Origin: an uncultured Candidatus Saccharibacteria bacterium
GTDB taxonomy: Bacteria > Patescibacteriota > Minisyncoccia > UBA6257
Direction of reading: 5' to 3'
Length of the DNA: 64,000 bases
Assembly (NCBI GenBank): GCA_964479005.1
Contig: CAYZJA010000001.1
Coordinates: 224,001 to 288,000 of the forward strand
The notes beneath the pieces are model-generated. The model saw only the letters and a program-made list of their open reading frames with translations. It was not told where the DNA came from and searched no databases. This document shows, piece after piece, positions 7,289-63,860 of this stretch. Position 1 is the first letter of the stretch. Each line of letters opens with the position of its first letter. A program made the translations under genes and the position numbers.

Positions 7289-7357
7289 AAGGCGAGAAGA
7301 TGTTGTTGAAAAAACGATAACGATTAGCGTGTTTTTGAGATAATATCTTCTCGCCTT
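7289..7357 (-). ncRNA. Conserved hairpin element, copy 1 (variable outer stem, conserved 45-nt core)
   Basis: A 13-bp perfect outer inverted repeat (AAGGCGAGAAGAT / ATCTTCTCGCCTT) encloses the core ATGTTGTTGAAAAAACGATAACGATTAGCGTGTTTTTGAGATAATAT. A second copy lies at 34067-34134 with a different but self-complementary outer stem. Confidence 0.5.
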
Positions 7358-19915: not shown

Positions 19916-20034
19916 AGATTTATTTTAACTTCTTTCGCCACGCCTAGTACCCATTGTTTATTCTACCAAAAAATCGCCTCTTTGGCGATTTCGATGTATC
20001 TCGGTCCCTCGATAAAAAAACTAGACGGCTGGGG

Positions 20035-21266: not shown

Positions 21267-21396
21267 AATTTTAATTAATTTTGTTAAATTTTTTATTTCG
21301 ACCTCATAAACATTTTAGCAAATTTTTCTTATTTTGTCATTAATATTAATTAAATAACAAATAATAACTAACAATTAAAAATATAAAATTTCTCAA

Positions 21397-21590
21397 GAAG
21401 CAAGTATTTGCTCCTGAACGACATTAGTGGAAGCAGAGATACAAACAAATGAAACGAATGATAGGGAAAGCCGAAACTGGAGCGGAGCCACGTTTGACGT
21501 GGCGGAGCGGAATTTCGGAAGGCTTCCAGAGCGAGTGAATATTGTTTGTCTCTGCTGGAATGCAGGAGAGAAGGGGGAAATACTTGCTTC
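21397..21590. repeat. F1 rod-like palindromic repeat element, copy A (~195 nt)
   Basis: The termini GAAGCAAGTATTTG and CAAATACTTGCTTC are complementary. Nested internal pairings include CTCCTG/CAGGAG and GCAGAGATACAAACAA/TTGTTTGTCTCTGC. The apex is a GCCACGT-TTG-ACGTGGC hairpin. The element is about 85 percent identical to 34154-34353. Confidence 0.6.
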
Positions 21591-22474
21591 TACACATCCA
21601 TTTGTCTCAAAGCCTTTACCCTTTCTTCTATAAGAGGATGAGTCATCCAAAGCTTGCTTACTGCTTTTTTTCTAAAAGGATTAGAAATAAAAAGATGGCT
21701 TGTCGCATTTGAAGCAACTCGTAAAGGATTTGGATCCTGAGAAATTTTCTCTAATGCACGTGCTAATCCTTCTGGATAGCGAGTTAAAAGCGCTCCTGAA
21801 GCATCAGCTAAGAACTCCCTTTTTCTTGATATGGCTAGTTTGAGTAAAGTAGCTGCTAAAGGCGCTATAATAGCGGCTACGATGCCAATTACCAGCATAA
21901 TAAGACCTAAATTACCTTTACTATCTCTATTTCTTCTTCCCCAAAACAAAGACCTGAAAAGCCAATCTGATAATAAAGCAATCATACCAACCAAAACCAC
22001 AACTACTGAGGATAAAAGAATATCACGATTGCCAATATGAGCTAATTCATGAGCAATAACTCCTTCTAATTCAGATTTTTCCAATTTATCTAATAATCCT
22101 TGCGTGACACAAACAACCCCGTGTTTAGCATCTCTCCCAGTGGCAAATGCATTAGGAGAAATATCATCAATAATATAAATCTTCGGCATTGGCAATCCAG
22201 CTGTAATAGAAAGATTTTCCACTATCCTGTATAATTCTGGATTATCCTCTTTTTTTATTGGTTTTGATTTAGTTAAAGCAAGAATAATTTTATCAGAATG
22301 CCAATAACTGGAAAAACTCCAAAATACACTAAAAATAACAGCAATATATAAAATCAACAACGATTCAAAAATATAACTAAAAACCCATCCTAAGGCAATA
22401 ATTAATATCAAAAAAACCGTGATTAAAAACCACGTTTTCCGAATATTAGAATCGACTTGTGTGTAAAGAGTCAC
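21590..22474 (-). CDS. htpX: Zn-dependent protease HtpX (M48)
   Basis: An HELAHIGNRD zinc motif is present, with multiple TM helices and an M48 layout. Confidence 0.9.
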   Translation of the reverse strand: MTLYTQVDSNIRKTWFLITVFLILIIALGWVFSYIFESLLILYIAVIFSVFWSFSSYWHSDKIILALTKSKPIKKEDNPELYRIVENLSITAGLPMPKIYIIDDISPNAFATGRDAKHGVVCVTQGLLDKLEKSELEGVIAHELAHIGNRDILLSSVVVVLVGMIALLSDWLFRSLFWGRRNRDSKGNLGLIMLVIGIVAAIIAPLAATLLKLAISRKREFLADASGALLTRYPEGLARALEKISQDPNPLRVASNATSHLFISNPFRKKAVSKLWMTHPLIEERVKALRQMDV

Positions 22475-34032: not shown

Positions 34033-34059
34033 TTAGCAATCAAATGTCAAGAGTGCTAA
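34033..34059 (-). promoter_or_regulatory. CIRCE operator (HrcA binding site)
   Basis: The minus strand reads TTAGCACTC-TTGACATTT-GATTGCTAA, matching the CIRCE consensus at 17 of 18 positions. Confidence 0.8.
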
Positions 34060-34066
34060 GCGAGAT

Positions 34067-34134
34067 AAAGGTTCGGAATATTGTTTCAAAAACACGCTAA
34101 TCGCTATCGTTTTTTTCCACAACATTCCGAACCT
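34067..34134 (+). ncRNA. Conserved hairpin element, copy 2 (same family as 7289-7357, opposite orientation)
   Basis: The outer stem AAGGTTCGGAAT / ATTCCGAACCTT encloses the core ATTGTTTCAAAAACACGCTAATCGCTATCGTTTTTTTCCACAACAT. This is the reverse complement of the copy-1 core with 3 or 4 substitutions. Confidence 0.5.
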
Positions 34135-34153
34135 TCTTTTATATTTATTAAGA

Positions 34154-34353
34154 AGCAAGTATTTGTTCCTGAACGACATTAATGGAAGCAGAAGTACAAA
34201 CAAATGAAACGAACGAAAAGGAAAGCCGGAACGAGCGAAGCCACGTTAGAAGTAAACTTCTAACGTGGCGAAGCGGATTCCGGAAGGCTTCCAGAGTGAG
34301 TGAATATTGTTTGTCTCTGTTGGAATGTAGGAGTGAAGGAAAAATACTTGCTG
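34154..34353. repeat. F1 rod-like palindromic repeat element, copy B, immediately upstream of corA
   Basis: The termini and nested stems match copy A. The apex hairpin is extended to CCACGTTAGAAG-TAAA-CTTCTAACGTGG. The ORF-track start of corA (MEAEVQTNE...) lies inside this element. Confidence 0.6.
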
Positions 34354-34413
34354 AATTGTTGTCCCCTGTTTTTCCACGATTGAGTTTGCCTGACTTTATA
34401 CGTCATGATAAAA

Positions 34414-35348
34414 TGAAGCTGTTGAATAATTTAAAACATATGAGACAAATATTTAAAGGAAAAATTACTTGGGTAGATATTACCTGCCCTGTTCAAGAAG
34501 ACATTGAATATCTTCGCAAAAACTATCGTTTTCACCCTATTATCTTGGAGGAGCTTAAAACGCCTTCCCAGAGAAATAAAACCGAAGCGCACGATGGCTA
34601 TATTTTTTTAGTAACTCATTTCCCATGTTGGAACGCTGTTGAAAAAAAATCTTCCCCATGGGAACTGGATATTATATTAGATAAAAATACTCTTATTACG
34701 ATTTGTTATGAAAAAAGCACGACGATGCGTGAAGAACTTATGGAAAAAGTTTATACAAAAGATTTTGAGAATTTATATCTTAGCGACACTATAAAACTTC
34801 TTTATTTTATTATTGAATATTTTTTGGATTTTGCCATACGGCAAATTTATCACATTCAGAAAAAGATTAATGATGTGGAAAAAGACATATTCCAAGGAAA
34901 AGCAGAAGACGCAATTCCTAATATCTCCTTCGTAAAAAGAGATGTTCTGAATTTTCAAAGAATATTTAGGTATTTAAAAGAAACTCTATGTTCTTTATCC
35001 AGGCAAGGACCACGAATTTTTGGAGAAAATAAACGTATTTATTTTGACGATTTAGTCGGTGATAGCACTAAAGTAGAAAATCTTATTGATAATTTCAAGG
35101 ACACTATAGAATCATTGGAAAATACAAATAATTCCTTGATGGAACATAAAATCAATCTCTTAACCAGAATTTATACAATTCTTTCTCTTGTAACCTGGCC
35201 TACTATATTAGTCACTAGTATTTATCAAATGAATACTAGTTATTTACCTTTTACGGGTTATCCTTATGATTTTTGGCTTATCCTATTAATTGCTTTTATA
35301 CCATCAATATTAATCTTTTCTTACCTTAAAAAAAGAAAGTTTCTATAA
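34414..35348 (+). CDS. corA: CorA-family divalent cation transporter with a QMN motif in place of GMN
   Basis: The C-terminal two-TM region reads TILVTSIYQMNTSYLPF, at the position of the canonical YGMNF. The true start is probably MKLLNNL. The upstream 232 nt of the annotated ORF is the F1 repeat. Confidence 0.75.
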
Positions 35349-40906: not shown

Positions 40907-40920
40907 AATCTATAGCTCGT

Positions 40921-41045
40921 CTGATGGAATATTATATTAATTTATTGTTCCTCATCTGGAGGAACATTATATTAATTTATCAAAATTTGATAAATTAATT
41001 ATTATTCCTCGTCCGGAGGAATATTATAATAATTTATTAAAAATT
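40921..41045. repeat. Intergenic tandem repeats (about 35-40 bp) with a hairpin and a 20-bp palindrome, between ftsI and murF
   Basis: Three degenerate units each end in ATTATATTAATTTAT. Two contain a TTCCTC-N5-GAGGAA hairpin. A central near-perfect palindrome TTATCAAAATTTGATAA is also present. Confidence 0.5.
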
Positions 41046-53772: not shown

Positions 53773-53790
53773 ATTATTTGTATTCTATCA

Positions 53791-53816
53791 AAAAATCGCC
53801 TTTAAGGCGATTTTTG
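53791..53816 (-). terminator. Terminator-like palindrome overlapping a downstream TGATAGAAT promoter
   Basis: An AAAAATCGCC-TTTAA-GGCGATTTTT perfect palindrome sits between relE-like and UDG-like genes. Confidence 0.5.
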
Positions 53817-53833
53817 TTAACTTGAGTTACTAT

Positions 53834-55231: not shown

Positions 55232-55280
55232 AACTAAATTATATCACAAATTTGGGTCGGCGACCGAATTAGATAGCTCC

Positions 55281-55308
55281 GGGAACTGGACGATGTTAGA
55301 ACCTGTTT
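55281..55308 (-). promoter_or_regulatory. Conserved upstream motif (GGTTCTAACATCGTCCAGTTCCC on the minus strand)
   Basis: The motif is shared with 57613-57640 and partially with 57011-57027. It has the same core as the GTTCCAACATCGTTCC sites near 17-18 kb. Confidence 0.5.
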
Positions 55309-55375
55309 TATGTAGAAAAACGGGACCACCAAATTTCGTGCCAGCGAAACTAGCACGCTGCAGTTCCCCACTAAA

Positions 55376-57034: not shown

Positions 57035-57565
57035 TCAATTTAAAATTTGTCCTAAACCTTTCCAGGCTTTCAGTAAAAAATTAATTAATCCTAAATAATA
57101 TTCACTCAAAAGAAAACCAAAAAGAACACTGAGAATTGCGACTTTAATTATTAAGTGAATATTCTTAAGTTCTTGCTCTTGTTTTTCTGTCTTATATCCT
57201 CTTTTTTTATAATCAAATAACTCCGGCTTCACTTTTAACATTAGTCCGTAAATTTTTTCAAATTCTTCTTCTATCCAGTTAAACCTATCAATATCTTTCT
57301 GCACTTCTCCAAAATCAGGTATAGCTACTGAATGTTTAGTTATTTTTTCCACTAATTCCTGGTCAATAAGAAACTTAACTGTATAAACAACATCCTCTAA
57401 TGGCTCTAACGAATTTTTATTATATTTGTGAAGAGGAAGTCCCTCTTTTAATTCTTTTTCTACAAAATAATTTAAACCTTCTTCATTCAATAAACGATAA
57501 ACAAGGGCTTCTCTTTTTTCTAATAATAAATTAATAAAATCTTCGTTTATCTTCATATTATCCAT
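57035..57565 (-). CDS. Hypothetical protein with a C-terminal TM anchor
   Basis: The start ATG is directly abutted by a GGTAGAAT extended -10-like motif. Confidence 0.5.
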   Translation of the reverse strand: MDNMKINEDFINLLLEKREALVYRLLNEEGLNYFVEKELKEGLPLHKYNKNSLEPLEDVVYTVKFLIDQELVEKITKHSVAIPDFGEVQKDIDRFNWIEEEFEKIYGLMLKVKPELFDYKKRGYKTEKQEQELKNIHLIIKVAILSVLFGFLLSEYYLGLINFLLKAWKGLGQILN

Positions 57566-57684
57566 ATTCTACCAAAAAACCGCCTCTTTTACGAGACGAT
57601 TCTTCTTAAAAAAATCCGCTCTGGGAACTGGACGATGTTAGAACCTGTTTTGGATAATAAAAATCTACAACATATAGTAAATCT

Positions 57685-58002
57685 TCAATTATCTTTGGGA
57701 ATTTTTATTGTCTTTTTCCCTCTTTCCTTTCTCTTTTTTTTTGACTTTCTTCCACTCAATGCCCATTCAAGCCATTCTTTTTTCTCTATTCCAGACTGCC
57801 TGATCATTGTTCTAAGAGTTAATTCTGGATAAGACTTCGCATTTGTATTAAAATTTATTTCTACTATTTTATCATCTCCACTACTAATCCAAACCTTCCA
57901 ATCATCATGAGAACCATCTTTAGATTTAAAAAAACTAAAACCGTGAGATTTTAGAAAATTAATAACATCTTTATATGACCAATTACGAAATCTTCTTGGC
58001 AT
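57685..58002 (-). CDS. HicA-like toxin (YcfA family)
   Basis: KDVINFLKSHGFSF...DGSHDDW and the C-terminal TLRTMIRQSGI parallel the HicA consensus. Confidence 0.55.
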   Translation of the reverse strand: MPRRFRNWSYKDVINFLKSHGFSFFKSKDGSHDDWKVWISSGDDKIVEINFNTNAKSYPELTLRTMIRQSGIEKKEWLEWALSGRKSKKKRKERGKKTIKIPKDN

Positions 58003-58011
58003 AACTTAAAA

Positions 58012-58374
58012 TTAAGCCAAACAACCAACCAAAGCAGGAATGGAGTTAGGGTTGTATTTAAGTTGCTTAGCCGATTCCAACCTGACTCGTGTAAGCTTTT
58101 GTTCTTTAATCTTTTTCTGAAATTCAAAATATTTATCCCAAAACTCTTGGGGTGCATAACGATTTAGTAAATCATCAGAAAGTTGTTTTCTGCAAACAGT
58201 TTTAAGATGAAGAATAGCTGCCTCTTCTACACTTTTCATTACTTCAATTGAGTTGTCACCTTCTTCAATAATATCAAAAGTAAGACAGACTCCAACGAAT
58301 TTATCTCCACTTGAATAACCAAAAAATTCCATTAAACCTCTTCGTTTAGTGTTTTTAGGTCTCAATATTTTCAT
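58012..58374 (-). CDS. HicB-like antitoxin (UPF0150-like)
   Basis: YSSGDKFVGVCLTFDIIEEGDNSIEVMKSVEEAAILHL resembles the HicB N-terminal fold. It sits immediately upstream of the HicA-like gene. Confidence 0.5.
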   Translation of the reverse strand: MKILRPKNTKRRGLMEFFGYSSGDKFVGVCLTFDIIEEGDNSIEVMKSVEEAAILHLKTVCRKQLSDDLLNRYAPQEFWDKYFEFQKKIKEQKLTRVRLESAKQLKYNPNSIPALVGCLA

Positions 58375-58547
58375 TTTTAAAAATTAATTAAAATAGATTG
58401 TTTAAAGTATAACAATACAAGTCAATAAGTCAATATCTGATAAATCGTCAGAAAATGTCCTTAAGAAGGTATGGCTGGACGAAGTTAGAATTCATATTTC
58501 TTTAGGATTCCAATTTCCATCTTTATCGAAATCACTTGTTCAAATAT

Positions 58548-59789
58548 TTACAAAATGGGATTTTTCTTTTCTAGTAAATCCTTAACTGTGATTAGCCTTA
58601 TTTCTAACTCCTTCTTATTTTTAATCCTTGCTACTTCCTCGTAAGCACCCTTAGTAAAACTAAAAGCTACAATATAACCCTTTTTATAATTTGCCCTTTT
58701 TAGGGCAGTCTCAAAATTATCTATAACATTACGCCCTACTTTATCAGACTGCTTTACCTGTATTCCTGCTTCTTCAGTTAAAACACTCCTTGGGTAATAA
58801 CCATCTAGCCCCATATCCCCAACTTTCTTTCTGCTCGCATTAGCCCTCATTTTGTCTATCACTACCCAGTTTTGAAACTCAAAAGGTTCTAATTTTTTTA
58901 CTTCCTCTATTGTAGTCGGCATACCAATCACTTCATAATCAATACCCTCTATCGTTCCTAAAGTTTTTCCTAATCTTCGTTGCATTATCTTGATTGCTGT
59001 TGGTGAAATATCTATTCCTATCCACCTTCTACCCAATCGTTGAGCTACAGCTACTGTTGTTCCGCAACCACAAAAAGCGTCTAAAACTATATCATTTTTG
59101 TTTGAGGACGCCTCTATTATTCTTTTTAAAAGTGCTTCTGGTTTTTGGGTGGGATAACCTACTCGCTCTTCTGCCATTGGATTTATTACGGGTATATTCC
59201 ATACATCTTCCACCATTTTCCCTAACGGATTACCTTCCCACTTATAGACTTTCTTTTTTCCACCTGGTCTTCTAATAGCGACTTCGTCTTTTAGTTCTCG
59301 GCAGTATTCTTCCTTAAGACTCGGTTCATTATAATTAAAAGTCCAATTATCTCCTTTTGTATAAAAATAAATTGTATCGTGTTTTCTTGGAAACCTTGTT
59401 TTACTTTGTCCGCCGCCCTTATAAGCCCAAATAATCTCATTTCTAAAATTTTCTACCCCAAATATCTCATCTAACATAATTCTTATATGAGCGTTGGCAT
59501 GCCAATCGCAATGTATGTAAAAAGAGCCTGTAGATTTCAATATCTCATACAATGCTTGAACTCTTGGTTTAAGCCAACTAATATAATTTTCTGTTCCGCC
59601 CTCCCATCTATCTTTAAAACTTCTAATCTCCGCCTCATCGCCAAATACAACTTCATACTGTTTATGAGTAAAAAATGGCGGGTCAATATAAATCAGATCT
59701 ATACTCTCTTTAGGAAGTTTAGCTAACTCTTCTAAATTATCGCCGCAAATAAGTTTGTTAATCTGCCAAAGTTTATTCTGATTAGACAT
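58548..59789 (-). CDS. DNA methyltransferase (DPPF-motif N6-adenine/N4-cytosine class) with a ~130-aa C-terminal extension
   Basis: DPPF (motif IV) and FCGCGTT (motif I) are present in beta-class order. The C-terminus carries D...E.K-like residues (GDMGLDGYY...IQVKQ). Confidence 0.8.
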   Translation of the reverse strand: MSNQNKLWQINKLICGDNLEELAKLPKESIDLIYIDPPFFTHKQYEVVFGDEAEIRSFKDRWEGGTENYISWLKPRVQALYEILKSTGSFYIHCDWHANAHIRIMLDEIFGVENFRNEIIWAYKGGGQSKTRFPRKHDTIYFYTKGDNWTFNYNEPSLKEEYCRELKDEVAIRRPGGKKKVYKWEGNPLGKMVEDVWNIPVINPMAEERVGYPTQKPEALLKRIIEASSNKNDIVLDAFCGCGTTVAVAQRLGRRWIGIDISPTAIKIMQRRLGKTLGTIEGIDYEVIGMPTTIEEVKKLEPFEFQNWVVIDKMRANASRKKVGDMGLDGYYPRSVLTEEAGIQVKQSDKVGRNVIDNFETALKRANYKKGYIVAFSFTKGAYEEVARIKNKKELEIRLITVKDLLEKKNPIL

Positions 59790-59794
59790 AGTAG

Positions 59795-59940
59795 GGATGG
59801 GTTTTAATTTTTATGCTTATATTTACTGGCTGGAAACACAAAGCTCCCCGCCAACGACAACCTTTCGGTCGCCCTATACCTTTCGGTATAGACCCATCCC
59901 TGAGCTCTGACGAGGAGCTTAATATCAGGGATGGGTTTTT
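59795..59940 (-). promoter_or_regulatory. Structured leader upstream of the methyltransferase with three AGGGATGGGT sites
   Basis: Two direct copies (59797, 59927) and one inverted copy (59891) of AGGGATGGGT are present. Minus-strand hairpins include CTATACC-GAAA-GGTATAG and a long stem ACCCATCCCTGA/TCAGGGATGGGT. Confidence 0.45.
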
Positions 59941-60134
59941 TATGCCATATCCTATATTAGAACTTAGGCAACTTTGATTATTTAGTTTTTACAATTAAAG
60001 AATAACATAAATTGATAAAAAGGGAAGCAGAATTGTACCCTCGTTAATTATATTAATCAATCACCATTTTAGCTTTATTTAGTCATATTTTATTGCTAAA
60101 ATAGGGTTGAATAAGACATAATTATATTATTTAT

Positions 60135-60968
60135 ATGACTGACAAAAAAATGCAAGGATGGCTCTCAGAGGCTAAAAATCCTAAAATAGAGCAAACAATA
60201 AGACTTCTAAAAATTAATAAAGAATTTTTAAAGGATGTAGCTGTTTTACGAAAAAAATGGCCTAGTTTTATAGAAAAACATAAAACAGCAATAGATAAAA
60301 TTATAATAGAACTAATAAAAATGGCTTATCAAGGATTCTTGAAGAAAGAAAAACCTTCCGATGTCGTTGAAAAAGCAAAAAAAAAGAATTTATTTCGCTC
60401 TGAAGAGCCAACTAAAGAAAATCTCTTTACCGCCAACACTAAATTTAATCAAGATATATTAGATCTATGTGAAAAATACAAACTCTATCCTATTAGTCTT
60501 TGGCGATATAGGGTAGCTATTTTTATTGTAACTAATGATTTTTCTATTTCTAATAAATTAGCAGGAATGGATTTAGCAAAATATTTATCTCCAGAAGAAA
60601 TAAGCCAAATTCCTGAAGATATGAATTTTAGTCTTAAAATCGAAAAAAATAAAGATACCAAGGAACTAGAGTTATTCATTCAAGTATATGAAACTACATC
60701 TTTACGAGATTTGAAAAAATATTGGCATATGGTAAAACATTCTCAAGATAAGCTAAAAAAGGCCAAAAAGATAGACAAAAGATACTATCCTAAAAAAGGT
60801 CTAGAAACTGCAGAAAAGTTATTCACATTAGATAAAACTAAATCAAAGTCTGATTGGGAAAAACATGATGCTATATATGGAGAACCTACTTCTTCTAGTA
60901 AAAAAGACGGGGAAAAAGAAACCAAAAAAACTAAAAATTTAAAAAGAATTAGGTATCGATATAAATAG
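60135..60968 (+). CDS. Hypothetical protein (lysine-rich)
   Basis: A long ORF with no recognised domain. Confidence 0.45.
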   Translation: MTDKKMQGWLSEAKNPKIEQTIRLLKINKEFLKDVAVLRKKWPSFIEKHKTAIDKIIIELIKMAYQGFLKKEKPSDVVEKAKKKNLFRSEEPTKENLFTANTKFNQDILDLCEKYKLYPISLWRYRVAIFIVTNDFSISNKLAGMDLAKYLSPEEISQIPEDMNFSLKIEKNKDTKELELFIQVYETTSLRDLKKYWHMVKHSQDKLKKAKKIDKRYYPKKGLETAEKLFTLDKTKSKSDWEKHDAIYGEPTSSSKKDGEKETKKTKNLKRIRYRYK

Positions 60969-61127
60969 ATTTTTAAATTCGTAATTTGGGCTCATATCTT
61001 GAGACCAGTTTAAATTAGCAATTTTGTATAATAACTCCAGAGATAATCTGGAGTTTTATGTTATTAAGCAAAAAAGCAATTAAGGAATTTAAAACGATCT
61101 ATACCCGAAAATTTCATCAGGATATAG

Positions 61128-61514
61128 ATGACAAAACTGCTCAGGAAATGGCTAAAAGGCTCCTCCTGCTCTTTAAAATTGTCTATAAGCCCCCAACTAA
61201 TAAACAATCAACTAAATATGACTAACGATAAATCTTATAATAATCTTAAAAAATGCCCTCGTTTTGATAGGTGCAATCAAAATTTATGTCCTCTTGATAT
61301 AAGGCTTTCATTAAGAATCGGAGGATCTGCTGAAAAATGTCGCTGGATGAGACCCCCTTCGAAGAAAACTATTCATGGTAAGGTCTTTATATCAGGAGGG
61401 CAGGTTATGCCAGATGGTTTATTGAATTTTGTGCCTGAGAGCAATTTAGAGTGGCTTAATACCCCCTCTAAAAAAAGATGGTTAGAAATTAAAAAAAATG
61501 AAACAAAATCCTAA
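61128..61514 (+). CDS. Hypothetical Cys-containing protein
   Basis: A CPRFDRCNQNLCPLD cluster is present. Confidence 0.4.
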   Translation: MTKLLRKWLKGSSCSLKLSISPQLINNQLNMTNDKSYNNLKKCPRFDRCNQNLCPLDIRLSLRIGGSAEKCRWMRPPSKKTIHGKVFISGGQVMPDGLLNFVPESNLEWLNTPSKKRWLEIKKNETKS

Positions 61515-62019
61515 TACTAAATTGAAGCTTAGACCTTTACGTCTCAGGGGTGTCCCTTTTGCTTGGCAGGATACTAGATTAATCCCAAAAATCCGAGAGC
61601 ATTTTCATAAAGAAAAGCTTACAACTGCCCTTGCTTTATACTTTGTTTTAACAGAACTTGCTAGTATTGAAGGAAAAGGACAAGGAAAACATATAAATTG
61701 TTTAAAGGCATATCTAAAAACAATAGCAGATCGTTGTGGTAAATCGGTATCAACAACCAAAAGATATCTCAAGGATTTTAAAAAATACAAAATTATATCC
61801 TGGAACAATCGTCGTAAAGGATTGATGAATTTATCAAATGAATGGTTATTACTTCATTATTACCAGCCCACTAATGAACGTACCTCTATTCATAATGATA
61901 AACCTGTTATAAAGAATTATATAAAAAGAAGTTTTATTAATAATAAAAGGAATTATAAAAATGATAAAGATAAAGGGTTCGTTCCTATTAAGGAAATCAT
62001 TGGCCGGAAGTATAAATAA
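61498..62019 (+). CDS. Winged-helix DNA-binding protein (replication initiator / replisome organiser-like)
   Basis: LALYFVLTELAS...SVSTTKRYLKDFKKYKIISW resembles HTH regions of plasmid or phage Rep and DnaD-like proteins. Confidence 0.4.
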   Translation: MKQNPNTKLKLRPLRLRGVPFAWQDTRLIPKIREHFHKEKLTTALALYFVLTELASIEGKGQGKHINCLKAYLKTIADRCGKSVSTTKRYLKDFKKYKIISWNNRRKGLMNLSNEWLLLHYYQPTNERTSIHNDKPVIKNYIKRSFINNKRNYKNDKDKGFVPIKEIIGRKYK

Positions 62020-62030
62020 GCTTGTAAATT

Positions 62031-62058
62031 TAAGGGGGGGTATAGGGGGGTTCGCGCG
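62031..62058. repeat. G-run / alternating CG tract (GGGGGGGTATAGGGGGGTTCGCGCGCGCGAGG)
   Basis: A very GC-rich 28-mer in a window that is roughly 30 percent GC. Confidence 0.5.
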
Positions 62059-62264
62059 CGCGAGGAATAATAAAAGATTTGCATAACAGTTGCAGTTGAT
62101 TTTCATAAAGCAAAAGAGATATAATAAAATATTGACCCAGATACCTCACAGGGAATCAATCTAGCGATAATGTCCTTAAAGGGGCGGTCTATACCAGTAT
62201 TGCTGGATCCTTGTGAAACAGTGGGGCTGGGTCAATTATAGGCCGTCCCTTTAATTCTAAATTT

Positions 62265-63860
62265 ATGGAACAAATAACATCAAAAATTAAATATTTTCTT
62301 TATGCAAGAAAATCATCTGAATCTGAAGATAGACAGGTAGCTTCAATTGATTCACAAATAAAAGAATTAACTGGGGTAGCTAAGAAAGAAAAGCTAAAAA
62401 TCATTGATGTTCTCACTGAATCTCAGTCAGCAAAGGCACCAGGAAGAAGCCAGTTTAATGATATGATCCAGAGAATCTCCAAAGGAGAAGCCCAGGGAAT
62501 TTTATGTTGGAAGCTGGATAGATTAGCCAGAAACCCTATCGATGGCGGAAATATCATGTGGTTACTTCAGAGTAATACAATAAAACATATCAAAACATAC
62601 AATAGGGATTATTATCCTACTGATAATGTTTTGATGATGAGTGTAGAATTTGGCATGGCAAATCAGTTTATAAGAGATCTGAGTGAAAATACAAAGAGAG
62701 GGCTAAGAGCAAAGGCAGAAAAAGGATGGTATCCTACCTATGCCTCTTTAGGTTATATGCATAATCCTTTAAAAAGAAAAGGAGAAAAAGAAATTATTAA
62801 AGACCCGGAAAGGTTTGATCTTATAAGAAAGATATTTGATTTAATGCTTACTGGTTGCTATACACCGCCTAAAATTTTAAAAATCGCTACTGAGAAATGG
62901 GGATTAAAAAATAAGCAAGGAGGAAAAGTTGCCAGAAGTACTGTTTATAGAATACTAACTGATCCATTTTATTATGGTCAATTTGAATATCCAAAAGAAA
63001 GTGGAAATTGGTATAAGGGCAAACATAAACTTATGATAACTCTAGAAGAATATGACAAAATTCAAATTTTACTTGGGAGAAAAGGTAAACCTCGATCTAA
63101 AACGCATACTTTCGCTTTTACCGGAATGATTAGATGTAGCGAATGCGAAGCAATGATTACAGCCGAAGAAAAAATTAAAATACAAAAAAACGGAAATATT
63201 CATAAATATATTTATTATCATTGCACCAAGAAAAAAGATTCTCATTGCTCCCAAAAATCTATAGAACAAAAAGAATTAGAAAAACAAATCCTGGATATTT
63301 TGGGTGGAATTGAAATTCCTCCAGAATTTCATCAATGGGCAATGAAGTGGATACAAATTGAAAATAAAAAAGAAAGTAAAGCAAGGAACCAAATTATAGT
63401 AAACCATCAAGAAAGCTATAAAAAATGTTTAAAGAGAATTGATAATCTTATTGATATGAGATCTGCTGAGGATATAACGAAAAAAGAATTTCTGAGAAAA
63501 AAATCGGAGTTAAGTCAGGAAAAGATTCGATTAGAAGAATTACTCGCGGATACAGGAAACAGAATTAATAAACAATTAGAGAAAGCTGAGGAAGCATTTT
63601 TATTTGCTGAAAAAGCTAAAGAAAGATTTGAAAATGGAGACATCAAAGACAAAAAAGAAATTCTAACAGCCCTAGGTTCGAACCTCATTTTAAAAGATAA
63701 AAAGCTAAGTATAACAATACAAAAACCACTTTTCCTTATTGAAAAAGTGGCCAAACAGGTTAAAGCAATTAATCAAAGGTTAGAACCTCTGAAAAACCGC
63801 ATAACAAATAACGAATTGGAGGAAATCTATCTTCAAAATCCTACGTTGCTCCGCGGGTAG
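62265..63860 (+). CDS. Large serine recombinase (integrase)
   Basis: The N-terminal resolvase catalytic motif YARKSSESEDRQVASIDSQ is present. A recombinase domain, a zinc ribbon CSECEA...YYHCTKKKDSHC and a C-terminal coiled coil follow. Confidence 0.85.
   Translation: MEQITSKIKYFLYARKSSESEDRQVASIDSQIKELTGVAKKEKLKIIDVLTESQSAKAPGRSQFNDMIQRISKGEAQGILCWKLDRLARNPIDGGNIMWLLQSNTIKHIKTYNRDYYPTDNVLMMSVEFGMANQFIRDLSENTKRGLRAKAEKGWYPTYASLGYMHNPLKRKGEKEIIKDPERFDLIRKIFDLMLTGCYTPPKILKIATEKWGLKNKQGGKVARSTVYRILTDPFYYGQFEYPKESGNWYKGKHKLMITLEEYDKIQILLGRKGKPRSKTHTFAFTGMIRCSECEAMITAEEKIKIQKNGNIHKYIYYHCTKKKDSHCSQKSIEQKELEKQILDILGGIEIPPEFHQWAMKWIQIENKKESKARNQIIVNHQESYKKCLKRIDNLIDMRSAEDITKKEFLRKKSELSQEKIRLEELLADTGNRINKQLEKAEEAFLFAEKAKERFENGDIKDKKEILTALGSNLILKDKKLSITIQKPLFLIEKVAKQVKAINQRLEPLKNRITNNELEEIYLQNPTLLRG

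Follow-up and report, generated by a model that had tools for sequence, protein, structure and literature searches.

F1, a whole-length palindromic repeat of Candidatus Paceibacterota and probably a mobile element of the ERIC/REPIN/MITE kind

The genomes of CPR/Patescibacteria are about 1 Mb in size and are commonly regarded as streamlined, with little mobile DNA. Classical MITEs, known from other bacteria, carry conserved terminal inverted repeats (TIRs) that match an IS, together with a fixed target duplication (TA for Correia). ERIC elements have enterobacteria or vibrio as hosts, in contrast to the repeat described here, which is hosted by Candidatus Paceibacterota; they are reportedly well conserved between species, a finding ascribed to Wilson and Sharp in 2006. 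We found no report in the literature of MITE-, REP- or ERIC-like families in CPR/Patescibacteria. ERIC lies in transcribed spacers, often at gene 3' ends, and RNA-level effects have been proposed for it, while bcr1 is a transcribed intergenic repeat whose fold is maintained by compensatory base changes; Correia/NEMIS and classical bacterial MITEs are likewise co-transcribed with their neighbours (PMC3184786). Gene 3' ends, co-transcription and compensatory changes are thus on record for ERIC and bcr1 (PMC3184786). REPIN/RAYT systems insert beside existing repeats, depend on an IS200-like enzyme and leave no target duplication (PMC3116915).

In a window of 64 kb (the whole stretch of DNA that was analysed), two full copies of a palindromic repeat, here called F1, lie in direct orientation with the hrcA...htpX heat-shock block between them. 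The minus strand of the window reads hrcA-grpE-dnaK-dnaJ...groES-groEL-lemA-htpX, with a CIRCE operator over the promoter of hrcA, and homologues of the window HtpX at 70-92% identity carry the source labels Candidatus Paceibacterota, Pacebacteria or Patescibacteria. We propose that F1 is probably a non-coding, non-autonomous, structure-dependent mobile repeat, forming a new family of the ERIC/REPIN/MITE kind that is confined to a sub-clade of Candidatus Paceibacterota. The two copies, delimited by sequence, fold, alignment and ORF map, are as follows:

F1 copy A: 21397-21590, plus strand, a 194-nt rod
F1 copy B: 34152-34352, plus strand, a 201-nt rod with a 13-nt apex stem extension, between hrcA (minus strand) and corA (plus strand)

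A first-pass annotation had given the copies as about 85% identical. The identity is far beyond chance, at 87% as mean column identity including flanks and 89% over the trimmed element (pairwise alignment), and BLASTN with copy A against the 64-kb window recovered copy B with E = 3.5e-33. The limits of copy A stand; copy B is present as claimed, but its former limits of 34154-34353 give way to those above. Each copy folds into a single end-to-end rod closed by a 14-bp terminal stem, and every pairing described earlier is present: GAAGCAAGTATTTG with CAAATACTTGCTTC, CTCCTG with CAGGAG, GCAGAGA..CAAACAA with TTGTTTGTCTCTGC, and the GCCACGT...ACGTGGC apex hairpin. The apex is indeed expanded in copy B, by 13 nt and not by the 12 nt first counted, which takes the apex stem from 7 to 13 bp. 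On the plus strand, the folds reach -74.6 (A) and -78.4 kcal/mol (B), with z = -7.4 and -9.3 and none of 200 shuffles equalling them; the rod also forms on the minus strand, at the less stable values of -62.0 and -65.7 kcal/mol. The G+C content of F1 is 43-48%, against 31% for the window and genome.

F1 does not code for protein. The ORF at 21393-21650 (minus strand) and the long corA N-terminus (ORF from 34182) are artefacts of F1, as had been suspected, because no reading frame is conserved between A and B and the indels between the two copies disrupt every frame; a protein database search with the false ORF encoded by F1 returned no candidates. The earlier judgement that F1 is not a tRNA and does not look like RNase P, tmRNA, SRP or M-box RNA also holds. 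Rfam 15 gave no match to F1 at gathering thresholds and only chance eukaryotic lncRNA, snoRNA and miRNA matches at E <= 10 or 5, with neither M-box nor any other family matched at E <= 5. ARAGORN found no tRNA or tmRNA in F1 and just two unrelated tRNAs, and 12 related loci compared with Rfam yielded tRNAs only. Hammerhead and other ribozymes, 6S RNA and an RNase P fragment (CUGA(A/G)CGA and GAGGAAAGCC, compared by eye) were rejected on misfitting core motifs and on the empty Rfam result.

The whole-length hairpin of F1 is kept by selection on structure. In the consensus fold of 11 copies (RNAalifold), 13 of the 60 pairs carry compensatory double changes, distributed from the terminal to the sub-apical stem, and 96.8% of pair cells are paired. 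Double-change cells number 40 as opposed to 16.5 +/- 2.9 in shuffles, and 0 of 500 shuffles reach 40; when the partners are slid by 1-3 columns, pairing falls to 39-47%. The terminal stem occurs as the variants GCAAGTAT, GCAAATAT, GTGAATAT and CTGAATAT, each with its matching complement. The inverted termini, 13-14 nt in each copy, accordingly come in four sequence variants with both ends changing together, and variation within F1 is greatest in the terminal 8-13 bp, whereas the loops are invariant. Over all columns, conservation at unpaired positions equals or exceeds that at paired ones (0.89 vs 0.85 in mean pairwise identity), and 46 of the 68 unpaired columns do not vary at all.

The rod is also strongly asymmetric between its strands. 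Purines make up 83% of the unpaired plus-strand positions in the 5' arm and 87% in the 3' arm, compared with a background of 47%, and all internal loops set purine against purine, for example GAA/GAA or GGA/GGA beside the apex. In the plus form, G-U cells outnumber A-C cells by 36 to 11, and in every one of the 11 copies its complement folds less stably, by 2.6-20 kcal/mol. F1 copies are strictly intergenic and usually start 0-20 nt past an upstream stop codon (htpX, eno, rplS, ftsI and others) or lie next to another palindromic repeat. At all informative sites, about seven, where the genes on either side are co-directional, the purine-rich form runs antisense to them; the sites counted are copy A (winA) and, among the related loci, which carry L numbers, L045, L054, L043, L027, L011, L042 and L016/L019. 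The GC skew of the window plus strand is negative, and gene direction and replication direction are inseparable in this orientation bias. Upstream of the purine-rich strand, no promoter is common to independent copies, the left flanks sharing no -35/-10, and in L016 and L019 a perfect extended -10 (TGGTATAAT) directs the opposite (minus) strand into the rod.

Copy A shares one base, 21590, with the htpX stop codon (complement of 21590-21592), and its purine-rich form is antisense to htpX. It precedes the promoter of a DUF4870 membrane-protein gene, a conserved ATGACA-17-TAAAAT at 21340-21312 on the minus strand. From copy B it is about 60 nt downstream to the likely corA start (ATG 34413; corA identity by Pfam, 1.7e-47), and the two run in the same direction. 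A promoter-like site for corA, TTGCCT-17-TAAAAT at 34386-34414, is downstream of copy B, and the promoter scan gave a weak plus-strand site, TCCACA-18-TATATT at 34116-34145, with 9/12 matches. A terminator scan found none at A or B. The rods are bordered by the following stretches, in which a slash marks the junction of the empty site:

21341-21396, plus strand: AT-rich stretch from rod A to the DUF4870 promoter, absent from empty sites (alignment of filled and empty sites)
34134-34151, plus strand: AT-rich leader TTCTTTTATATTTATTAA, inserted with rod B and holding the -10-like TATATT (compared with the empty site CACCC/GTTGTCC)
34353-34357, plus strand: GAATT, the last bases of insert B, followed by sequence matching the empty site (GTTGTCCCC)

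The AT-rich stretch at 21341-21396 appears to have arrived with insert A, and its AA at 21395-21396 is the same as the AA that precedes the copy B rod.

Two other repeats accompany F1 in the window, a small hairpin and a second palindrome called F2:

11603-11637, minus strand: solo small hairpin repeat with the sequence of the F1 apex, the core of a ~74-nt unit (about 11590-11670)
34068-34133, no strand assigned: F2 palindromic repeat, abutting the left side of insert B
7289-7357, no strand assigned: second copy of F2, in the opposite orientation, with the same core and a different closing stem

The small hairpin had been annotated at 11605-11634 as a solitary apex in reverse orientation, a fragment of the rod. 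The match (30-36 nt to the F1 apex) and the orientation are right, but the sequence aligns to the ~74-nt unit well beyond the hairpin. Because the match extends along that unit, 11603-11637 is a member of a separate, commoner small-hairpin family and not a broken rod. The ~74-nt unit is present in 26 other metagenome loci, solo or in tandem (including L014, L029 and L016); three tandem units lie between rpsS and rplV in L014 and L029, and L016 has hairpin units beside a rod. A CRISPR or TIGR-type array was considered for the tandem hairpins and rejected, since the 'spacers' are themselves repeated. In the alignment, the small hairpin is an optional, dispensable apex of the F1 rod: it is missing from L035 by a deletion between GCGAAGC direct repeats, and the 13-nt apex extension is found in four copies (B, L043, L040 and L016). 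Solo small hairpins are mixed in orientation, about 4 antisense and 6 sense, so that only the rod shows an orientation bias. In F2 the core is conserved and the closing stem changes on both arms, and the left side of F1 abuts an F2 end at 5/9 sites.

F1 is an insertion, since at each of three orthologous sites some relatives carry it and others cleanly lack it:

htpX 3' site, filled: window and L054, full rods, 90% identical to each other
htpX 3' site, variant: L045/L046, 226 nt, F1 ends around an F2-like interior
htpX 3' site, remnant: L049, a 36-nt F1 end plus a different rod
htpX 3' site, empty: L047/L048, L055, L056, L051/L052, L057 and L058, spacer of 70-92 nt
htpX 3' site, other: L053, an unrelated minisatellite
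hrcA/corA spacer: filled in the window, L040 and L035; empty in L045 (...CACCC/GTTGTCC...)
ftsI/murF spacer: filled in L042 (F2 plus F1); empty in the window

The L045 chimera keeps about 38 and 48 nt of the F1 ends around its F2-like interior. At the empty htpX 3' sites, the downstream promoter comes directly after the stop codon, with no replacement terminator. The insert at hrcA/corA comprises the rod, a 16-18-nt AT-rich leader and five trailing bases, and the htpX-site inserts have AT-rich tails of 15-55 nt. There is no target duplication at hrcA/corA, the one exactly readable junction pair (CACCC/GTTGTCC versus the filled sites); the htpX and ftsI junctions are ambiguous, with no duplication visible. 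The junctions share no conserved target motif, and their 4-5 nt flanks differ at every site. A composite transposon of A and B around hrcA...htpX can be dismissed, as relatives carry this block with one or neither copy.

Scanning metagenomes with the apex motif gave 35 loci, which a profile search then split into nine with full rods and 26 with the 30-36-nt hairpin only; a tenth external full copy was found behind htpX in L054. The family therefore numbers 12 full copies plus variants (2 in the window, 10 in metagenomes), with lengths of 175-212 nt, and all ten external full copies come from relatives (Candidatus Paceibacterota). At least two full copies and a remnant sit on one 127-kb contig (L016, L042, L049). 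Assemblers typically stop at repeats. The identical htpX locus was assembled independently in Logan from four runs, and each of these assemblies breaks off 34 nt into F1, as does that of L050 from another lineage; ending inside F1 in this way indicates repeat behaviour. A search of 366 kb of sequence turned up no extra F1 copies. A genome-collection scan for the two terminal 11-mers at a distance of 150-180 nt gave four matches, in unrelated phyla and to the pattern alone; four scans of viral contigs gave one chance match in a phage baseplate gene and nothing else, and BLASTN against plasmid and phage records left F1 unmatched.

Between orthologous sites, the rod changes more slowly than the synonymous positions around it:

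Copy B (winB) and L040: rod 93%, four-fold sites of flanking genes 72-77%
Copy B (winB) and L035: rod 91%, four-fold sites of flanking genes 76%
L016 and L019: rod 92%, four-fold sites 52-53%, flanking proteins 72% identical

In a sliding comparison of L016 and L019, identity is 86-98% over the whole F2+F1 spacer and 70-85% in the coding DNA on either side. Between the window and L054, the htpX-site copies are 90% identical, as opposed to 77% for the groEL-lemA-htpX DNA, and this value for two lineages also exceeds the 81-82% between paralogues within one lineage. Exchange between F1 copies seems to occur as well, because the orthologues L016 and L019 are unlike in the 13-nt apex extension, which copies from different clades nevertheless have in common; such exchange could inflate the apparent conservation.

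The first-pass annotation had offered an ERIC/Correia-like MITE as one of its explanations. As a palindromic mobile repeat, F1 broadly bears this out, being multi-copy, intergenic, bounded by inverted termini and polymorphic at three sites; with classical MITEs it shares small size (<~400 bp), lack of coding capacity, copy number and presence/absence polymorphism at those three sites. In the strict sense, F1 would not count as a classical MITE, as it shows no target duplication, no partner IS or cognate transposase was found in the window ORFs and about 0.45 Mb of related loci, and its termini are variable, indeed its most variable part. Correia/NEMIS, RUP, Nezha and Chunjie resemble F1 in being small, non-coding and multi-copy, with inverted termini of ~13 nt and a long stem-loop, but the termini of F1, unlike those of classical MITEs, vary by compensated changes around a fixed interior. 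ERIC (~127 bp) is closer in form, an intergenic, non-coding, whole-length imperfect palindrome with site polymorphism and no known transposase. F1 is longer (175-212 nt), belongs to a CPR host with a 31% GC genome, has neither TA flanks nor a duplication, and differs further in loops that are purine-rich on one strand and in a fixed orientation relative to genes. The resemblance is one of kind only, with no sequence similarity, in searches (phage and plasmid records, Rfam) whose targets did not include the ERIC consensus itself.

REPIN/RAYT systems and BIMEs are like F1 in building hairpin repeats around small GC-rich palindromes, with solo and composite hairpins and tandem arrays. F1 is nevertheless not a doublet of two inverted REPs: its two long arms are not copies of the small hairpin repeat, which forms the apex alone and is dispensable (L035). 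The GTAG-type motif of REPs is absent, and no RAYT or IS200-like gene was found in the window and related loci. bcr1 (~155 bp, Bacillus cereus group) shares with F1 a structure kept by compensatory changes and a patchy distribution among close relatives; it is a two-hairpin, cruciform-like element with 5-bp direct repeats, whereas F1 is a single rod without duplications. An integron attC site was also considered and rejected, as the ends of F1 (AAAGCAAGTATTT...AAATACTTGCTTT) do not read RYYYAAC...GTTRRRY, its flanks are housekeeping genes (htpX, eno, rplS, ftsI) and there is no integrase. Among the window ORFs, no transposase or HUH/Y1 enzyme was found, and none of the scanned ORFs has a Y1_Tnp domain; the sole recombinase in the window is a large serine recombinase at 62265-63860. 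Related loci amounting to about 0.45 Mb likewise gave neither a transposase or HUH/Y1 enzyme nor an IS or longer element whose ends match.

If F1 is a mobile repeat, it may move as a folded single strand, mobilised in trans by an enzyme that recognises the hairpin. The lack of a duplication, the seamless-looking empty sites, the strand-specific orientation and the keeping of structure over terminal sequence point to movement of the HUH type, so the candidate enzyme would be of the HUH/Y1 type known from IS200/IS605 and the RAYT-REPIN pair; less likely is a DDE transposase binding conserved termini. Once inserted, F1 would be read through from the upstream gene, since no terminator intervenes, and its transcript would form a long imperfect hairpin at the mRNA 3' end. 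This hairpin would most likely serve as a barrier at the 3' end or be processed there, in the way shown for ERIC, Correia and REP, and such a role could explain the retention and conservation of F1. Several observations nevertheless count against a mobile repeat, among them the missing target duplication and the failure to find a mobilising enzyme in the window ORFs and related loci. The termini vary most, the reverse of what is expected for a TIR bound by a transposase. At 90-93% identity against 52-77% at four-fold sites, orthologous copies are too conserved for a decaying insert. Read-through transcription would not yield a better-folding purine-rich strand, and the density of F1 is modest. 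Neither the loop conservation, nor the strand asymmetry, nor the conservation excess is explained by a purely selfish repeat.

These are the features on which another reading is built, namely that F1 is a host-selected structured nucleic acid, an ncRNA gene family or a set of ssDNA sites, which is read from the purine-rich (plus) strand and duplicates or moves only now and then. We regard this as a real possibility, though not a likely one. The purine-looped rod would then either offer a scaffold to binding proteins or regulate the convergent upstream gene in antisense, which agrees with the greater stability of the plus form in every copy, with the purine excess at unpaired positions of that same strand in both arms and with the surplus of G-U over A-C cells. 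Loops at least as conserved as stems fit it too, as does a closing stem that covaries around a fixed interior, as in real RNA families, and so does the high GC of F1 in a low-GC genome. Orthologues are far better kept than nearby coding DNA, with an identity peak over the L016/L019 spacer, and copies cluster partly by site and not by genome. To this extent the multi-copy structured ncRNA put forward in the first-pass annotation is supported by covariation, strand asymmetry and above-neutral conservation, and we keep it as a rival to the mobile repeat. However, a dedicated RNA sits poorly with the lack of a conserved plus-strand promoter or terminator, copy B alone having a weak site, and with the extended -10 of L016/L019, which drives the minus form. 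The element is dispensable at each site in close relatives, chimeric or truncated versions exist (L045, L049), and the exchange between copies could mimic purifying selection. A broader and rather doubtful proposal takes F1, the small hairpin units and F2 together as host-selected, strand-specific structured modules peculiar to Paceibacteria, with mobility secondary; selection would act on the purine-looped strand, present either as antisense RNA or as ssDNA (for example cDNA or a replication intermediate).

The opposite strand could matter instead, if F1 were a domesticated minus-strand cis-element of operon transcripts (a terminator, mRNA 3' stabiliser or RNase III site), immobile and inherited vertically with occasional deletion. 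The position just past the stops of htpX, eno, rplS, ftsI and others, with the same form always sense, would suit such an element, and several copies have U-containing tails after the rod, for example GCUUUAUUUUUUGUCUUU in L045 and CACUUUUUUUAAAA in L019; the htpX-site copies of two lineages could also be one old insertion followed by losses. We still consider it unlikely, given that the form in the sense direction folds less stably and has 36 cells with A-C mismatches, that the terminator scan was blank at A and B, and that the empty sites pass directly to the downstream promoter without a replacement terminator. Copy B, moreover, lies upstream and not downstream of the co-directional hrcA, assemblies break in F1, and chimeras exist. 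The first-pass annotation had also suggested that copy B is a cis-leader of a Mg transporter gene, which would make it a 5' leader or riboswitch of CorA (M-box-like) and copy A a second regulator. The closeness of copy B to the likely corA start, the shared direction and the Pfam assignment of CorA speak for this idea, but it is contradicted and highly improbable. The better corA promoter-like site lies between copy B and the gene, L045 has the same hrcA/corA spacer without the element, the eight other sites have unrelated neighbours with no Mg-transport gene, and Rfam provided no M-box or other match.

The results show a single Paceibacterota sub-clade with a mosaic of at least three GC-rich palindromic repeat families. 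Such families break assemblies, create false ORFs and false N-terminal extensions, as at corA, and mark insertion polymorphisms useful for strain typing. If a hairpin-specific mobilising enzyme is involved, HUH/RAYT-like systems would extend to CPR. Compared with the chaperone genes around it, the rod is the better conserved, and it is strictly asymmetric between its strands; neither feature is explained by an ERIC/REPIN/MITE-like verdict. If host selection is responsible, this would suggest a function at the RNA or ssDNA level that has so far gone unrecognised, in organisms not yet growable alone, and the host-selected modules, if real, would make up a new class of ncRNA or ssDNA element, conserved as well as mobile, in the reduced genomes of CPR, and not selfish DNA.

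The GC-rich small hairpin repeat GAGCGAAGCCACGTTTAACGTGGCGAAGCG, a family separate from the ~195-nt rod-like palindrome F1, lies inside a unit of ~74 nt that occurs in 26 of the 35 metagenome loci, either solo or as near-identical units in tandem arrays, such as that in the rpsS/rplV spacer. It has no orientation bias and is REP/BIME-like. F2, the second palindromic repeat, combines the conserved core TTTCAAAAACACGCTAATCGCTATCGTTTTTT with a closing stem in which both arms vary; its long versions carry ~100 nt of additional GC-rich sequence, and its right end is repeatedly adjoined directly by F1. These copies, from the window and from metagenome loci (L-numbers), are listed with further repeats of the window:

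Window 11590-11670; L014 3642-3860; L029 8980-9210; L016 6479-6640: small hairpin repeat units
Window 34068-34133 and 7289-7357; L042 3243-3415; L011 88-275; L016 6050-6225: F2 copies
Window 17186-18455, 19959-20001, 53781-53823, 55274-55320, 57565-57662: dispersed repeat families D1-D3 and D5
Window 40911-41038: three 36-nt tandem units with a hairpin, in the murF/ftsI spacer

Two putative regulatory features accompany genes of the window. A CIRCE-like operator, TTAGCAATC-N9-GAGTGCTAA, is located at 34033-34059, overlapping the hrcA promoter TTGACA-16-TAAAAT, and is unchanged in L045, L040 and L035. Immediately 5' of trxB, at ~11683-11765 on the minus strand, is a candidate small RNA or leader; it comprises a TATAAT box, two hairpins and one more that resembles a terminator, and had no Rfam match at E <= 5. 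This candidate is kept in L057 (17186-17300), a relative with 76% identity in HtpX, and between the window and L057 both sides have changed in 9 of 31 pairs.

Toward the end of the window, where the GC skew switches sign at ~60 kb, a LOOT RNA is adjoined by a HicA-like gene and two further genes, and the region 57685-63860 may be an integrated element:

58548-59789: N6/N4 methylase-Mrr fusion
59856-59970: LOOT RNA, 72 bits
62265-63860: large serine recombinase

The region downstream of htpX is variable among the relatives. In L045, the closest relative, two genes located 2.3-5 kb 3' of htpX (13230-15852; also in L046) encode a Schlafen/AlbA_2-domain protein and a reverse transcriptase (RVT_1, 441 aa). 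The syntenic stretch of the window lacks both genes, which may form a retron-like or defence-type pair. L053 (10886-11250) carries an unrelated insert with a CTTTTAAAC/CTTTTATAC minisatellite in the spacer 3' of htpX. That spacer, the site of F1 copy A in the window, appears to be an insertion hot spot.
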